A DNA stretch of 64,000 nt from a phage: the sequence record PX969468.1. One strand, written 5' to 3'. Positions 1-45,734 of the stretch are shown here, piece after piece. Within the stretch, counting starts at the first letter, position 1; every line of letters begins with the position of its first letter. The notes below the pieces were generated by a model that worked only from the letters and a program-made list of their open reading frames with translations, made no database searches and had not been told where the DNA came from. Made by a program: the position numbers and the translations under genes.

Positions 1-560
1 GACAAGTTTTTCTCCTCTTTGTCAAGTGCTGCATGAAAAATTTACAAACTGGTATGGTAGCATTTTTGCGGCCCTGTTTACATTCAGGAGTGTATGTATA
101 ACCCTTGTTGTGTGGGCGTTTAGACGTCTGGACGGTCAGAAGTCCGCAGGTTAATATCTAATCTATTGGTCGCTAACTATATCCCCCACAAATAATAAGA
201 AATGCAATTGTTATGTGCGTAAACAGTGACTCATGTTATCAATCCCTGTATGTATCGCCAGTGGTGCGCATAATGGGTATTATGTTAAATTGCCCGTAAT
301 GATAACTATTCTCACAATGATAGGTATTCTCATTCAACCCCGCAAAACAGGTTGCAAATGTTGTGCCACTGTGTGAACGGCCTCACCTATTAATCTGCCT
401 CACTGCCCCGATATTTGAGAATTGTTATAAGAATGAGAAGTATTCCCATTTCGTCCGCCTGGCAGCACTCCAGTCGCTACCGGCTCCTGACAGGGAAGCA
501 CTCCTGTTGGTCAGGTCAAAATCGTGGTATAACTGGGTCTATTCAGATATTTCTGGCTGA

Positions 561-1748
561 CTCTTCAGGTCTGTGTGGGAAAAGCCAACCCCTCCGGCGG
601 CTGGGAGGGGGTCAATTAAAAAATTTACGTGGTGTATGAAGCGCTCTTCAGGTAAGGCATGTATTATGGGATGAAACCCTCTTCAGGCAATGATATTTGT
701 AGGTGTGATATTTGCTGGAGAGCCAGATATGACGGGACTCCCGGCGGGGCAGGGGTAGTACAGACAGGGAAAATATGGGGATGTAGTTGGGTGAATTGAT
801 CAGGCAGGTAGAGTATGGAATATGTTACAAGTATGTTAAATATGGAGGGTGAATATCTGCAGGATTTGTGTGTAAAATCAAAGACTTAAGTAGTGTTGTG
901 GTATTTTCTATAAATAATTCAAGTTTAATAGGTAATATTTGTCTCTATCCACTTTGTGTGGTAAACAAATTCAAATGAGGTTGGTTTACAAGTGTATACA
1001 TAATATACAAATTAAAGATACAAGAAACCCCCCTCCCCCTTCGGCTACCATTCACCTTTTCCTCTGACTGGTACTTAAACACTTATTCAGACTCTTCAGG
1101 TTATCACCCATATACCATATGGCAGTGACTGGTGTCCTCCGGCCCCTCTTTCGTCACCCGTCCGCTTCGCCATGCTAATGCCATAGCCAAATGTTCGGTT
1201 GTTCACCCTGTTCACTCAGGTGTATCTCCATACCCCTTCAAACCGAAGAGAACAGAAAACCCGAATTACTCGGTAAAAGAAAAGAGAAGAACTTAATTTT
1301 ATCAGGATAGGCAAGAATGTCAAGGCATGACTGCTCACTAAACAAGCAAACAGTCATGTGTGGGAGGTAAGTGATTGTGGTGGTGGGAAATTTAGTTGAA
1401 AGATGGGTTATAGGTGCTTCCAGCACTTTAGCCGGGCAGCTAATTGTGTGTCAGTCCAGCGGTTCATCCTCTACTTCACTGAAATCAATGTTCATGGTCT
1501 CTTCCCAACCATCGATCTCAGCACAAGAGTGGAGTTATTTAGGGTTTACTCCCAAAGCCTCAGCAACAGAGTCTATATTTAACACCTCTGGCAGGTATGA
1601 TTCATCGAATTCAAGGTAAATCAGGCCACGAGTGTTGTCAGCTCCACCAAATATTTCTATCTTCATGAAATCTCCTCTGGAAATGAGAGTGTGAACAGGG
1701 TTTTATACGTTCCAATGCACTGGAATTATACACGTTTGCCTCTTCAGG
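561..1748 (+). repeat. Five same-orientation copies of the 9-mer CTCTTCAGG (561-569, 644-652, 679-687, 1092-1100, 1740-1748) in an ORF-poor region
   Basis: Read directly from the sequence. About 0.2 copies per strand would be expected by chance in 64 kb. Region 1-1240 has no convincing ORF with an RBS. Confidence 0.5.
1535..1666 (-). CDS. hypothetical small protein (43 aa)
   Basis: ATG preceded by AGGAGA at 4 nt spacing. Below the ORF-track size cutoff. MKIEIFGGADNTRGLIYLEF... Confidence 0.35.
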   Translation of the reverse strand: MKIEIFGGADNTRGLIYLEFDESYLPEVLNIDSVAEALGVNPK

Positions 1749-1787
1749 CCATGCTTTAGCATGAGGAATCTGTGTGGGCTCGGTGCT

Positions 1788-2201
1788 TCATAGTCTACCG
1801 CCCCTAAACTCTTCGTGCTCAGGCATAATAGAGAACCAGATATCTACGATGTCCTCCCACGTCAGGTCATCAGCCTCAGGATCTACCTGGAGCGAAGATG
1901 AAGAGTCATCAGAATCGAAGTTTTCCTCTTTCACTGGCTCAGCCAATGGACATATGGTCACTCCTTCAAATGTCTCTTCAGATACATGTGTGTTGATCAT
2001 GTTCCACCCGTGAGTATTCCGGCAACAGCCGCTATGGACGTAATGATCATCAGGATCACCACTAAAACTTCGGACAGTGTTTTCATTGTGTATTCCATAT
2101 TCTCCAAATGATGTGTGGATATTATCACCGGAGCGGCAATGTGTCAACAGAAACGCCGCGAGGGTTTGGTTAAAATCCGAGCGTATGGTGATTTGGGTCA
2201 A
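1788..2201 (-). CDS. hypothetical acidic protein; start uncertain
   Basis: Track ORF with acidic C-terminus. An alternative 33-aa hydrophobic ORF (1997..2098) overlaps it in another frame. Confidence 0.3.
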   Translation of the reverse strand: MTQITIRSDFNQTLAAFLLTHCRSGDNIHTSFGEYGIHNENTVRSFSGDPDDHYVHSGCCRNTHGWNMINTHVSEETFEGVTICPLAEPVKEENFDSDDSSSSLQVDPEADDLTWEDIVDIWFSIMPEHEEFRGGRL

Positions 2202-2359
2202 AACGGACGTGCGTTCTCGCTACGCTCGAAAAGAGAGTTGTTTGTAGGAAGCTCTTAAACGCTCTGTAATGAGATTATCTGTCCAAGGTATGCAATCGTG
2301 CACCAGATAAAGAAAAGGACGCCACAGAGCGTCCTAGGTGTCTTAAATTTGATATTTTG

Positions 2360-2659
2360 CTATACCCATGATGGCTTATCAAGGTTGGAGTAGCTGAAAG
2401 GTGTCAAAAGGTGACTGTCAAAATCTCTCAAACTATCCAGATCTTTTTCCTCGTCCTGACACCATCTGTGCCTGCATTTATTGTTGTAGTGCATAGAATG
2501 CATGGCGTTCTGCAACTTAACAGGCACAAGCGATTCAGGAGTAGATAGTATTGTTGGGTATGCCAGAACCACTTCAAACAGTGGAAACACATCGAAACTA
2601 AAATCTACCTCTGCAGAGGTTGATGGCATGTAGGAGTATTTAGCCGCCTTTGTAGACAT
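2360..2659 (-). CDS. hypothetical protein
   Basis: Track ORF; start moved to the ATG preceded by GAGGTGG. Confidence 0.5.
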   Translation of the reverse strand: MSTKAAKYSYMPSTSAEVDFSFDVFPLFEVVLAYPTILSTPESLVPVKLQNAMHSMHYNNKCRHRWCQDEEKDLDSLRDFDSHLLTPFSYSNLDKPSWV

Positions 2660-2667
2660 AATCCACC

Positions 2668-3000
2668 TCACACAGGTTTGATAATACCTTCACCGAATAA
2701 CTCTTCGTATCTAATCTTATCCGGATCCCACTCCTGGATAATTTCGAAGATAATATCCAACCCTGGGATAATCACTTCTCCGGTATCAAGCTTAGCAAGA
2801 ACAAAACCGGAAGGTTGAATGGTTTCCCAGTTACGGCGATCAGAATAAAATACTTCGAAAATATCACCAACCTCAATCCGTTTCTGTTGCTCAAGATGCT
2901 CAAGGTTCTCTTTCATACGGATGCAGCGGATTTTTCGTGCAGGCCATAGACCACCTGCATCACGTTCATTCAATTCTTTTACAGTGATCCGTATACCCAT
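2668..3000 (-). CDS. hypothetical protein
   Basis: Track ORF in the co-oriented minus-strand gene array. Confidence 0.5.
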   Translation of the reverse strand: MGIRITVKELNERDAGGLWPARKIRCIRMKENLEHLEQQKRIEVGDIFEVFYSDRRNWETIQPSGFVLAKLDTGEVIIPGLDIIFEIIQEWDPDKIRYEELFGEGIIKPV

Positions 3001-3027
3001 CTCAAATCTCCTTCATAGATAGTAAAA

Positions 3028-3641: not shown

Positions 3642-3796
3642 TACTGCGCTCCTTGGGTAATAATACTGTATGTAAAACTTTAACCAGAGATGTGAATAAC
3701 GCCCCAAAACACACTGATAGCGCTAAAACAGACAAGGCCATCATTAAAGCTTCAGTAAAATCAGTCATTCCTCACCTCTTGTTAGTCACTATACTA

Positions 3797-12854: not shown

Positions 12855-13139
12855 CTACCAGGTTACTGTCAAGTAGGCAACCGTGTTATTTTTCTCTGGA
12901 GAGATGCCAACAACATCTACCTGCAGACCTCCTGCCCTCAAATCCCCAACAATATGCGGGAAGTAATCTGAGAGATGTGAGGGTAGATTTATCGAAAATC
13001 CGCATCCCAGAAAGCCTGCTAACGCTTTATTTTGTATCTCCCCTACAATCGCATCATAAATGGAGTTAAGCTCGTCAGGGAGCGTTACAGGACGTTTTAG
13101 CGCTAACTGGTGCAACTTGTCCTTAGCACTCATTTTCAT
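12855..13139 (-). CDS. hypothetical protein
   Basis: Start moved to MKMSAKDK..., which overlaps the upstream stop as ATGA. Confidence 0.45.
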   Translation of the reverse strand: MKMSAKDKLHQLALKRPVTLPDELNSIYDAIVGEIQNKALAGFLGCGFSINLPSHLSDYFPHIVGDLRAGGLQVDVVGISPEKNNTVAYLTVTW

Positions 13140-45635: not shown

Positions 45636-45734
45636 GCTAGGTAAGCCCTTTGGCAAGGGCGAGGATTTTTAATCCTGAAAATAGACGAGGTAGTCGTTGA
45701 ATACATAGGTGGTTCGATTCCATCACCTAGCACC
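45636..45734 (+). tRNA. atypical tRNA-like gene (about 99 nt; Lys TTT-like anticodon loop; about 29-nt extra region); possible pseudogene
   Basis: Perfect 7-bp acceptor (GCTAGGT/ACCTAGC), D-arm, T-arm GGTGG-TTCGATT-CCATC, anticodon loop TTTTTAA with a 4-bp stem; insertion too long for a canonical type I tRNA; no full CCA. Confidence 0.35.

Follow-up and report, generated by a model that had tools for sequence, protein, structure and literature searches.

An oriented short-repeat module beside the direct terminal repeat of Vequintavirus DNA, a candidate signal for end formation and packaging

The terminal repeat and the gene-free zone

By sequence comparison the window (the whole stretch of 64,000 nucleotides that was analysed) is DNA of a Vequintavirus, an rV5-like myophage of E. 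coli, its positions 1-2400 being 95-96% identical to many Vequintavirus records. Alignment also identifies window position 1 as the physical genome end, since the record of phage Gotham terminates exactly there and the records of HdK5, Pr121LW, ECP2303 and YN3 also start or end at this position. The first and last 459 bp of Gotham are identical and both align to window 1-459, which thus belongs to a direct terminal repeat (DTR); the window holds only one genome end, and the evidence for two copies of the repeat is that of Gotham, whose unique sequence after the DTR begins TGGCAGCACTC, i.e. window 460-470. Terminal repeats of 459 bp in Gotham (PMC7471380) and of 458 bp in EdH4 and HdK5 (PMC6563267) have been published, and fixed ends are backed by sequencing reads for Gotham (PMC7471380), for EdH4 and HdK5 (PMC6563267) and for KPP-1 (PMC9862379). 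The map of rV5 shows a "non-coding" box of 2.4-2.6 kb, gene-free between ORF163 and ORF164, half of which is window 460-1447; this box and the 458/459-bp vequintavirus repeats are the same locus as the region described here. The DTR itself is therefore already known, whereas the oriented motif module beside it appears to be undescribed: the vequintavirus papers report the repeat length or the lack of ORFs and nothing further on the locus, and a literature search found no description of the CCTGAAGWG/AAATATC repeats, the GRCGGAC boundary or their cross-genus conservation, and no vequintavirus transcriptome. The features of the DTR and of the zone next to it are as follows, the DTR start being at 459 and its far end at position 1.

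1-459, no strand: direct terminal repeat (DTR), to which the annotated 459-bp repeat_region of Gotham aligns
1-26, no strand: conserved terminal sequence at the far DTR end (GACAAGTTTTTCTCCTCTTTGTCAAG), aligning with the last bases of the KPP-1 DTR and with PVP-SE1
261-290, no strand: 30-nt DTR core block, the most widely conserved non-coding element among those found here
298-314, 316-332 and 432-448, no strand: DTR-internal repeats AATGAnAnnTATTCTCA, from repeat analysis
416-428, no strand: inverted copy of the DTR-internal repeat AATGAnAnnTATTCTCA, from repeat analysis
410-416, minus strand: AAATATC, 43 nt inside the DTR start, at the same offset in other genomes
453-459, minus strand: DTR-start heptamer GGCGGAC, kept in the form GRCGGAC at the DTR start elsewhere
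460-545, no strand: hypervariable, indel-rich spacer just outside the DTR (identity 0.67-0.79 with several indels among 12 relatives)
589-610, minus strand: terminator-like GC-rich hairpin followed by a U-run (7-bp stem with 6 G-C pairs, then TTGGCTTTTC)
850-1020, no strand: AT-rich segment of 27-28% G+C, between plus-strand G-rich 700-900 and C-rich 1000-1250
1022-1385, no strand: segment nearly invariant in 13 vequintaviruses, including a C6TC5 tract, motif copy 4 and the promoter of the next line
1323 to 1296, minus strand: predicted strong sigma-70 promoter TTGACA-16-TGnTAAAAT, matching at 11/12 positions and invariant in 13 phages

Several elements of the DTR extend well beyond the genus. 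The last bases of the KPP-1 DTR (TTGACAAGGAGAGAGAATTGTG) can be aligned to window 1-26, with TTGACAARGAG...TTGT in common at the far end. The core block at 261-290 has 90% identity in PVP-SE1 and 4MG and 81% in KPP-1, and is matched at about 97% over 29-31 nt in Certrevirus, Avunavirus, Pectobacterium and Serratia phages as well as within the annotated DTR of Hena1. The internal repeats carry a repeat_region annotation in magaca and Alma, and similar AATGAGAAT words are found in the KPP-1 DTR. AAATATC lies at +43 in seven genomes of six genera (the window, Gotham, KPP-1, PVP-SE1, 4MG, Av-05 and Hena1), and at +46 in CR3, for which the DTR boundary is an estimate. GRCGGAC opens both the annotated DTR of Hena1 and that of KPP-1, which was placed experimentally and assigned by PhageTerm to the T7-type class (PMC9862379), and it falls exactly at the homology-predicted DTR start of PVP-SE1, 4MG and Av-05. 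Since the heptamer is found in the window and in these five relatives, and the far end is common with KPP-1, the boundaries are homologous to those of the relatives, and GGCGGAC at 453-459 probably represents the context of the cleavage site.

The array of genes read in the direction of the DTR has its untranslated tail at 460 to about 1447. An ORF-poor region had been marked at 1-1240 from the letters alone, and its non-coding character is borne out: ten short ORFs of 39-74 aa are present, none with a PHROG match; relatives mostly have nothing annotated here, and their sparse annotations disagree with one another. In the best-conserved of these ORFs the substitutions examined, in an alignment read by eye, alter the amino acid. 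The extent had been set too short, in that the gene-free zone reaches about 1447 (1534 in this phage, which has a stop codon in its last gene) and continues on the circular map for about 1 kb to the left of position 1. Gene content around the end region varies between relatives, and neither window 1022-1385, with its C6TC5 tract at about 1029-1040, nor the wider 750-1450 has a counterpart in KPP-1, where the corresponding zone measures just 335 nt. The zone of the window shows no enrichment of Chi sites, DnaA boxes or IHF sites, with a single IHF consensus, and GATC is nearly absent (one site in 1450 nt).

Two signals of transcription are predicted within this tail. The GC-rich hairpin noted earlier at 590-612 is real, at 589-610, and has the sequence features of an intrinsic (Rho-independent) terminator; it stays strong in roughly half of the relatives only. 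The window, rV5, LL12 and C2 have the strong form, and eight other phages show it weakened or replaced. C-rich CCCCTCCCCCGCCCGGAGGG hairpin elements occur 70-130 nt before the DTR start in PVP-SE1, 4MG and KPP-1, the PVP-SE1 counterpart having its T-run on the opposite strand. The promoter predicted at 1323 to 1296 lies beyond the last gene and points at the DTR with no ORF downstream, and such orphan, DTR-directed promoters with a TG-extended -10 are found in the window, KPP-1, PVP-SE1 and 4MG. An RNA gene had also been suggested for the region; no member of a known family is apparent, as covariance-model searches of window 1-2600 on both strands gave no Rfam match at E<=1, and the folding z-scores (-1.2 and -1.5) are unremarkable.

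Oriented repeats upstream of the DTR start

The repeats in question are a 9-mer with the consensus CCTGAAGWG (core CTGAAG), of which CTCTTCAGG, or CCTGAAGAG on the sense strand of the DTR-ward array, is the Vequintavirus form, and the heptamer AAATATC. Outside the DTR they are placed as listed here.

546-552, minus strand: AAATATC copy 93 nt before the DTR start, from the motif scan
561-569, minus strand: motif copy 1, an exact CCTGAAGAG, 102 nt upstream of the DTR start
644-652, minus strand: motif copy 2, an exact match, forming a 35-nt tandem pair with copy 3
679-687, minus strand: motif copy 3, an exact match, overlapping a weak promoter-like site
692-698 and 707-713, minus strand: two AAATATC copies directly upstream of motif copy 3, from the motif scan
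1092-1100, minus strand: motif copy 4, an exact match
1740-1748, minus strand: motif copy 5, intergenic, upstream of the last gene, with TATAAT 9 nt on
1974-1982, minus strand: motif copy 6, a degenerate form reading TCTGAAGAG, shortly before a ribosome-binding site

The 64-kb window has 8 exact matches to CTCTTCAGG, all on the plus strand (starting at 561, 644, 679, 1092, 1740, 19172, 26602 and 27469), against 0.6 expected, a dinucleotide-shuffle null being one that underestimates the background of this motif. Near-matches elsewhere are always antisense to the local genes and can therefore be ascribed to coding bias, and the remaining CCTGAAG occurrences of the early array are all within ORFs. 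In the complete relative Gotham, with the rest of its genome as the null, 5 of the 9 genome copies fall in 1.3 kb where 0.02 would be expected (P ~2e-11). A similar density genome-wide, which the sequence-only reading had named as its refutation, was thus not seen and the cluster stands; its count of five copies within 1-1240 comes down to four, the fifth lying at 1740, 500 nt outside that interval. The copies are irregularly spaced (83, 35, 413 and 648 nt). Two losses apart, 12 relatives have them at homologous positions, and within the genus they are conserved no better than their immediate flanks. Copy 6 differs by one mismatch (CTCTTCAGA) and is exact in Murica, and the promoter-like site over copy 3 reads TTGCCT-16-CATAAT (690 to 663). 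No motif copy is found inside the DTR (window 1-459) and, in the Vequintavirus comparison, none in the 2.5 kb on its other side. AAATATC is likewise enriched in the pre-DTR zone of Gotham (5 copies against 0.11 expected, P ~1e-7), and 4 of the 6 genome copies of CAAATATC in that phage are in the zone from -700 to +60. Together the CTGAAG-type and AAATATC repeats, all sense-oriented, extend from 640 nt upstream of the window DTR start to 43 nt inside it, and this layout of short oriented repeats near a cut, repeated in other genera, is the sequence pattern of a terminase recognition site.

Mydovirus, Seunavirus and Avunavirus also have CCTGAAGWG or its CTGAAG core clustered shortly before the DTR, and weaker forms are seen in Henunavirus and Certrevirus. 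In several genera of the Vequintavirinae the cluster occupies a few hundred bases ahead of the DTR start, and the far side of the DTR has no copy. In KPP-1 the copies are at 1990, 2042 and 3000, and the context of window copy 1 (GACCTGAAGAGTCAGCC) and the AAATATC pair at 692-713 match, respectively, KPP-1 GACCTGAAGTGTCAGCC and twin AAAATATCA repeats. Of the 8 copies in the PVP-SE1 genome, 4 fall within the 667 nt preceding the DTR (P ~3e-10); 4MG has four copies, and Av-05 has three ATCTCTGAAGG copies whose CTGAAG core lies 54, 26 and 11 nt before the DTR start. CTGAAG is absent altogether from Hena1, and the non-coding zone of CR3 has only a CCTAAAGAG variant. The nearest copy is 11 to 317 nt from the cut depending on the genus, and each genome has one to four additional sense copies of AAATATC upstream of the cut. 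The flanking genes are unrelated between genera (those of the window and KPP-1 give no match by tblastx), yet the motif stays tied to the DTR. A conserved 101-aa neighbour, the homologue of PVP-SE1 gp115, was rejected as a synteny anchor, as in other genera it lies 33-36 kb from the terminal repeat. Neither was a mirror-image motif common to the genera found across the DTR, the words on the other side all being specific to a lineage (GTAAACA-type repeats in Vequintavirus, TTATCATTTG in KPP-1, for example). Pattern scans of IMG/VR for two or three spaced motif copies returned unrelated coding repeats only, none with a BLAST match to the window, and a host-derived element was dismissed in view of there being no match in 5,426 E. 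coli genomes.

Packaging signal or other functions of the repeat zone

After the cross-genus comparison the best-supported reading of the motif zone, to which a probability of about one half can be given, is that of a cis-acting module for end formation and packaging. Such a module would act as the signal by which genome ends are formed from replicated concatemers, its short repeats being candidate binding sites that would bring the packaging enzyme, either terminase or a partner of it, to the cut close by and set the direction of packaging, perhaps assisted by transcription from the orphan promoter, as in T7. This reading is favored by the non-random, oriented occurrence of the motif, its recurrence across genera without conserved neighbor genes, its link to the cut site, the orphan promoters that point at the DTR, and the precedent of T7 together with the T7-type class of KPP-1. 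The option of a terminal repeat or packaging region, raised earlier for the whole of 1-1240, is thereby divided: 1-459 is the DTR, and the motif copies and the hairpin lie outside it, in the adjacent unique DNA. Counting against a packaging function are window copies 1740 and 1974 and two copies each in KPP-1 and 4MG, which lie between genes, 1.3-1.5 kb from the DTR, a long way off for a signal at the cut; the coincidence of several copies with transcription signals; the range in distance of the nearest copy from the cut; the lack of CTGAAG in Hena1 and the mere variant in CR3; and the conservation of copies within the genus at the level of their flanks. The 30-nt core and the +43 AAATATC are better conserved, and these may be what is really recognized, the 9-mer then having some other role. 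Headful packaging has been inferred for a vequintavirus in one paper, on weak evidence.

It is possible, if on balance unlikely, that the motif is instead a transcription signal, to which a factor of the phage or the host would bind as to an operator, a roadblock or a terminator-promoter module, so as to control the small genes at the end of the array and to halt transcription before the terminal repeat and the opposing array. The earlier suggestion of a regulatory region survives to the extent that some copies overlap promoter-like or terminator-like sites. The motif is always on the array sense strand; KPP-1 2042 and 3000 and 4MG 2413 fall in the -35/spacer of sigma-70-like promoters, 2042 and 2413 as TTGACCTGAAG(A/T)GTC...TATACT, a 10/12 sigma-70 match upstream of a real gene, and 3000 in a similar promoter-like match at 2996-3024; in the window, copy 679 is followed by CATAAT and copy 1740 by TATAAT, each 9-10 nt downstream. 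KPP-1 1990, 4MG 2361 and PVP-SE1 3694 are in terminator-like hairpin loops, the first two within textbook terminators at 1983-2006 and 2354-2377. Moreover, two arrays converge here, where the authors of rV5 expected terminators and found none, and the minus-strand RNA of 700-950 is strongly C-rich and G-poor, resembling a Rho-loading site. However, the 30 ordinary sigma-70-like promoters of the array are without such a spacer, so that a general early-promoter consensus element was rejected as well, and there is no intergenic copy elsewhere in the array. Four of the window copies have no gene to regulate, copies 561, 644 and 1092 have no usable -10, and stems around the window copies are at most 3 bp. 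The three copies of Av-05 adjoin the cut site rather than a gene, and the motif remains DTR-tied where flanking genes are wholly different between genera. Were the motif transcriptional after all, it would mark a conserved control point where two early arrays converge.

The nearly invariant segment of about 360 nt, with its 11/12 promoter lacking a downstream ORF, the C6TC5 tract and the 27% G+C block flanked by a sharp GC-skew inversion, might also suggest a transcription-primed replication origin in which the promoter at 1323 to 1296 would yield a G-rich RNA forming a stable hybrid at the G5AG6 tract beside AT-rich 850-1020, with the 9-mers as iterons or loading sites; a promoter, a G-rich RNA and an AT-rich region are combined in the T7 and T4 origins, in ColE1 and in mitochondrial CSBII. 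Such an origin seems improbable here, as KPP-1, with its 335-nt zone, has nothing corresponding to 750-1450 and yet conserves the motif, the spacing is too irregular for iterons, DnaA boxes are not enriched and IHF has a single consensus, and skew analysis of rV5 showed only changes linked to transcription direction. Transcription from the same predicted promoter would carry the motif into RNA, and 9 of 17 copies in four genomes lie within stems of at least 3 bp (6 of 17 within stems of at least 4 bp), while C-CUGAAGA-G is exactly positions 31-39 of PVP-SE1 tRNA-Phe. A non-coding RNA with CCUGAAGAG as a protein-binding loop, a tRNA-Phe anticodon-arm mimic or a boxB-like element (lambda nutL boxB being GCCCUGAAGAAGGGC) acting as decoy or in antitermination, is nevertheless quite improbable given the Rfam result and z-scores above, the two pairing registers with stems of only 1-3 bp at the window copies, the derivation of several strong hairpins from orthologous copies of one terminator, which are not independent, and the Av-05 variant CUCUGAAGG, which violates the anticodon-loop pattern. 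That the copies are functionless leftovers of local duplication or of decayed promoter/terminator cassettes at a gene-poor, recombination-prone end would agree with the 35-nt tandem duplication of copies 644 and 679, with the indel-rich surroundings and variable gene content, and with a within-genus conservation no better than that of the flanks, but is very improbable in the face of the same 9-mer, in the same orientation and on the same DTR side, in genera whose surroundings and genes cannot be aligned, and of an enrichment that is independent and extreme in Gotham and PVP-SE1.

Other identities of the motif were considered and rejected. CUGAAGAG fits the CUGANGA core of a hammerhead ribozyme, and copy 1092 has a possible stem II and GAAA, but drawing by eye gave neither a stem III nor a cleavage site, and Rfam was negative. 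A lambda-type nut boxB has a 5-bp stem closing a GAAGA/GAAAA pentaloop and is promoter-proximal; the stems here are of 1-3 bp in two registers and the position is at the distal end of the transcription unit, and lambda boxA/boxB was discarded. A Shine-Dalgarno role would have a plausible distance to a start codon only for copies 1740 and 1092, whose ORFs are not conserved.

Comparison with known packaging systems

In T7, arrays of short repeats lie beside the terminal repeat. The locus resembles the T7/T3 concatemer junction in that the terminal repeat is direct, exact and short (160 bp in T7 and 459 bp in this phage), in the non-coding DNA adjoining the repeat, in a gene-less promoter firing into it (T7 phiOR; predicted at window 1323 to 1296), and in the T7-type assignment of the relative KPP-1 by PhageTerm. 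The T7 polymerase pauses at the concatemer junction and recruits gp18/gp19, and sequences for packaging specificity lie near the termini (PMC3276506). Unlike T7/T3, the promoter here is of the host sigma-70 type, these phages encode no phage RNA polymerase, the phage is a myovirus with a 137-kb genome, and the motifs have no sequence similarity to T7. A T7-like coupling of end-making to transcription by host RNA polymerase can be envisioned for the Vequintavirinae, in which the orphan promoter would drive polymerase through the CCTGAAGWG and AAATATC array towards the GRCGGAC cut, and the elements, on the DNA or the nascent RNA, would stall polymerase or recruit terminase and so fix both the cut position and the packaging direction; in an RNA version of the scheme C-CUGAAGA-G would copy the anticodon arm of a phage-type tRNA-Phe. 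As a whole this scheme is rather unlikely.

Phage P1 packages headfuls from a single pac cut that has hexamers on both sides, and Dam methylation of GATC in the hexamers regulates the process. AAATATC is comparable in that a fixed cut has it on either side at conserved distances, within the DTR at +43 and in 1-4 copies upstream, whereas the second word, the 9-mer, is on one side only; unlike P1, the ends here are fixed and the zone is nearly GATC-free. The three close oriented copies at 561, 644 and 679, 100-230 bp to one side only of the cut, recall lambda cosB, but lambda has cohesive ends and not a duplicated repeat, and its R1-R3 sites are of 16 bp, with an IHF bend, and are bound by the small terminase gpNu1. 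In adenovirus the A repeats of the packaging domain follow the inverted terminal repeat, ahead of the first gene, and define the end that is packaged first. The multiple redundant oriented short repeats just inside one terminal repeat look alike in the two cases, by analogy only, as adenovirus infects eukaryotes, its terminal repeat is inverted and its proteins are unrelated.

Among phages whose terminal repeats are short and exact, only the T7-like podoviruses have had the recognition and cutting of their concatemers worked out, and the repeats provide a small defined set of sites for mutation by which this could be approached in a large myovirus. Widely isolated, the rV5-like phages serve in therapeutic and food-safety cocktails; their records have been deposited with arbitrary starts, and the 2.5-kb gene-free box has been unexplained since 2013. 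The boundary signature (GRCGGAC, AAATATC 43 nt inside, the 30-nt core and upstream CTGAAG-type repeats) allows the true genome ends to be placed from sequence alone, and it held in seven genomes of six genera and approximately in a Certrevirus.

The terminal repeat and its setting

All 122 phage records matched by window 1-2400, at 90-97% identity, belong to rV5-like myophages (genus Vequintavirus), and a more sensitive search with window 1-1450 gave no match beyond that genus. Nineteen of the matching records are named "Campylobacter phage"; these are 90-96% identical to the present E. coli phage, are marked UNVERIFIED, carry the taxonomy Vequintavirus, and their host label appears to be wrong. 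The minus-strand genes of the window extend from ~41 kb down to ~1.45 kb, which bears out the earlier placement of the region at the far (3') end of the minus-strand array. The array's last gene, 71 aa in Gotham, has in the window an in-frame TAA at codon 44 (1535-1537) with the remaining frame intact, which reflects a sequencing error or else a nonsense mutation of recent origin. The region is ORF-poor as had been claimed: the longest ORF is 74 aa, a PHROG search with its ten ORFs found no match, and annotation in the relatives is absent or mutually contradictory. Circularly permuted records extend the gene-free zone ~1 kb further left of position 1. The rV5 zone, 2.6 kb long, lies between ORF164 and ORF163 and is drawn as a grey "non-coding" box in which bidirectional terminators were expected and not found (PMC3606486).

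Two gene arrays converge in this zone on a direct terminal repeat (DTR). Window position 1 is exactly where the Gotham record ends, and that of HdK5 ends there too; the annotated 459-bp repeat_region of Gotham aligns to window 1-459, and Gotham's two ends are identical across 459 bp, with the unique sequence after the repeat corresponding to window 460 onward. These record ends and the identical ends of Gotham indicate that window 1-459 is the DTR and position 1 the physical genome end, a structural identification that, on these alignments, is very probably correct. The suggestion of a terminal repeat made by the sequence-only reading therefore holds for 1-459 and fails for the flagged 9-mer, CTCTTCAGG (CCTGAAGWG type on the minus strand), since every copy lies outside the repeat and none within it.

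Features of the terminal repeat and the adjoining region (window coordinates)
261-290, inside the DTR: 30-nt block, ~97% conserved in Certrevirus, Avunavirus, Pectobacterium and Serratia phages, 90% in Seunavirus
298-332 and 416-448, in the DTR: AATGAnAnnTATTCTCA (core TGAGAAT/ATTCTCA), three direct copies and one inverted
410, plus strand, inside the DTR: fourth GATATTT
460-545, directly outside the repeat: indel-rich stretch, where identity to the window falls to 0.67-0.79
546-720: conserved block with three motif copies, a hairpin and three GATATTT (plus strand: 546, 692, 707)
561, 644, 679, 1092, 1740, 19172, 26602, 27469, plus strand: exact copies of CTCTTCAGG
700-900, 850-1020 and 1000-1250, plus strand: strongly G-rich, AT-rich (27% G+C) and C-rich, respectively
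1022-1385: nearly invariant ~360-nt segment in 13 vequintaviruses that are 5-8% divergent elsewhere; includes motif copy 1092
1323 to 1296, minus strand, in the invariant segment: predicted consensus-type sigma-70 promoter TTGACA-16-TGnTAAAAT, 11/12, the region's best promoter match

An oriented 9-mer on one side of the repeat

The 64-kb window holds eight exact copies of CTCTTCAGG, all on the plus strand, against 0.6 expected from a shuffle null, an expectation that is too low. One-mismatch matches elsewhere are always antisense to local genes and every other CCTGAAG of the array lies within an ORF, so the background stems from codon usage. The cluster survives the genome-wide comparison that the sequence-only reading had advised: with an empirical background, 5 of the 9 copies in the complete genome of Gotham, a close relative, fall within 1.3 kb, against 0.02 expected (P ~2e-11). 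Of the five copies first reported in 1-1240, the clustering stands and the count does not, as four are inside that interval and the fifth is at 1740; a sixth, at 1974, has one mismatch in the window and is exact in Murica. The first five of these occupy homologous positions in 12 relatives, with one lost in FV3 and one in C2, and no copy was found in the 2.5 kb beyond window position 1 in any relative examined.

The DTR of the Mydovirus KPP-1, 514 bp long, was placed by coverage and PhageTerm and classed as T7-type (PMC9862379). It likewise lies in a gene-free gap between converging arrays; its flanking genes have no detectable similarity to the window, and the two DTRs have their far end in common. 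Short DNA blocks match between the two, in opposite orientation of the KPP-1 record: ~37 nt inside the DTR, the twin GATATTT repeats and the context of motif copy 561. The KPP-1 repeat also holds AATGAGAAT words that resemble AATGAnAnnTATTCTCA. Read in the sense direction of the array leading into the DTR, the motif is CCTGAAGAG, and its types recur in several genera.

Sense-strand motif copies in other genera
KPP-1: CCTGAAGAG at 1990 and 2042; CCTGAAGTG at 3000, 317 nt before the DTR
PVP-SE1 (Seunavirus): CCTGAAGWG at 3666, 3694, 3718 and 4046, and one CCTAAAGAG variant, in the non-coding zone after the last gene
4MG (Seunavirus): four copies
Av-05 (Avunavirus): three ATCTCTGAAGG copies, the CTGAAG core 54, 26 and 11 nt before the predicted DTR start
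Hena1 (Henunavirus): CCTGAGTGTCC and CCTGAACGTCC variants 55-100 nt before the annotated DTR
CR3 (Certrevirus): only a CCTAAAGAG variant in the zone

Four of the 8 copies in the whole PVP-SE1 genome fall in this 667-nt non-coding zone after the last gene (P ~3e-10). The anticodon arm of the PVP-SE1 tRNA-Phe (12982-13057 of sequence L189) reads GC-CUGAAGA-GC, so that this tRNA loop accounts for one of the eight CCTGAAGAG copies in the genome. No comparable word shared between genera was found on the other side of the DTR. That flank, left of position 1 and outside the window (2850-3000 of sequence L003, ~2350-2500 of L127-L136), is a hypervariable array of imperfect ~16-nt repeats of the type (C/G)(A/G)TGTAAACA(G/A)T, whose copy number varies among relatives; Gotham has GTGTGTAAA there at -123, -60 and -44.

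The repeat boundary and a candidate end-formation module

GRCGGAC opens the DTR in the window (minus strand, 459-453), in KPP-1 and in the annotated repeat of Hena1, and is found in PVP-SE1, 4MG and Av-05 at the exact positions that homology predicts. AAATATC, the minus-strand form of GATATTT, stands at +43 inside the DTR start in 7/7 genomes (window, Gotham, KPP-1, PVP-SE1, 4MG, Av-05, Hena1) and at +46 in CR3, where the boundary is estimated; upstream of the start are 1-4 more sense copies within 30-400 nt. In Gotham, 4 of the 6 genome copies of CAAATATC lie between -700 and +60. In four genomes a TG-extended -10 sigma-70-like promoter just past the last ORF fires towards the DTR. Small palindromes are seen at both repeat boundaries, TGTCA|GACA in Gotham and GCC|TGGC in the window (positions 0/1 and 459/460).

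By this comparative evidence the 9-mer is shown to be a component of a conserved, oriented, one-sided module around the predicted DTR-start cut site across the phage subfamily, and the module is tied to the DTR and not to any gene. The module may be a cis signal for concatemer cutting and packaging start, a function to which we give a probability of about 0.5. Short repeats beside a cut or terminal repeat follow the same logic in P1 pac, lambda cosB and the adenovirus A repeats, and here they would bind protein and thereby place the enzyme and define polarity. T7 offers the closest parallel that has been worked out: its packaging specificity comes from sequences near the ends, and gp18 and gp19 are recruited by the pausing of RNA polymerase at the concatemer junction (PMC3276506). 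The 261-290 block is the best-conserved non-coding sequence met in the subfamily, and this 30-nt core together with AAATATC at +43, both more conserved than the 9-mer, may be what is primarily recognised. The terminal repeat has already been published, as has the non-coding box; no description of the CCTGAAGWG/AAATATC repeats, the GRCGGAC boundary, the 30-nt core or the cross-genus conservation was found in the searchable literature. The module adds an uncharacterised case to a type of element already known, the end-formation site flanked by repeats, and makes no new category.

Transcription signals, the invariant segment and rival readings

Some motif copies lie between genes 1.3-1.5 kb away from the DTR, which counts against a packaging role, and several fall on transcription signals: in both KPP-1 and 4MG, TTGACCTGAAGAGTC...TATACT makes a good promoter, and GGGAGCC-TGAAGA-GGCTCC followed by a T-run forms a terminator. 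Stems of at least 3 bp enclose 9 of 17 motif copies across four genomes; however, around the window's own copies they are only 1-3 bp, two pairing registers are in use, and a number of the strong hairpins are mutual orthologues. Hairpin-embedded copies with a 7-nt loop mimic the PVP-SE1 tRNA-Phe anticodon loop. The distant copies, the overlap with transcription signals and the stems therefore make a transcriptional role, as an operator, roadblock or terminator module where the two arrays converge, the main rival. We consider it rather unlikely. The hairpin noted in the sequence-only reading is real, at 589-610 and terminator-like on the minus strand, but is well kept in only about half of the relatives. 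RNA folding is unremarkable (z-scores -1.2 and -1.5) and an Rfam search of the region gave no match.

The invariant segment 1022-1385 gave no match in Rfam or in E. coli and is without a counterpart in KPP-1. Its promoter is aimed at the DTR with no ORF downstream, and an origin primed from 1323 is possible for the Vequintavirus-specific part, 750-1450; such an origin fails to explain the motif in KPP-1, which is without a counterpart of 750-1450. A C6TC5 tract at ~1029-1040, directly before the 27% G+C block (850-1020), would read G5AG6 in the transcript from this promoter. The mitochondrial CSBII element (AAACCCCCCCTCCCCC) terminates primer transcripts; the likeness of the tract to it is probably a coincidence, yet is compatible with an R-loop origin.

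The early array (window 1-41500, minus strand) has ~30 sigma-70 consensus matches of at least 10/12, mostly with perfect TTGACA, among which no common spacer motif was found. GATC occurs once in window 1-1450, as against ~5.5 per kb over the whole window. In the tRNA cluster, at 45636-45734, ARAGORN predicts a tRNA of 99 nt whose anticodon has four bases (atcc), at a place where Gotham has an annotated 97-nt tRNA-Lys.
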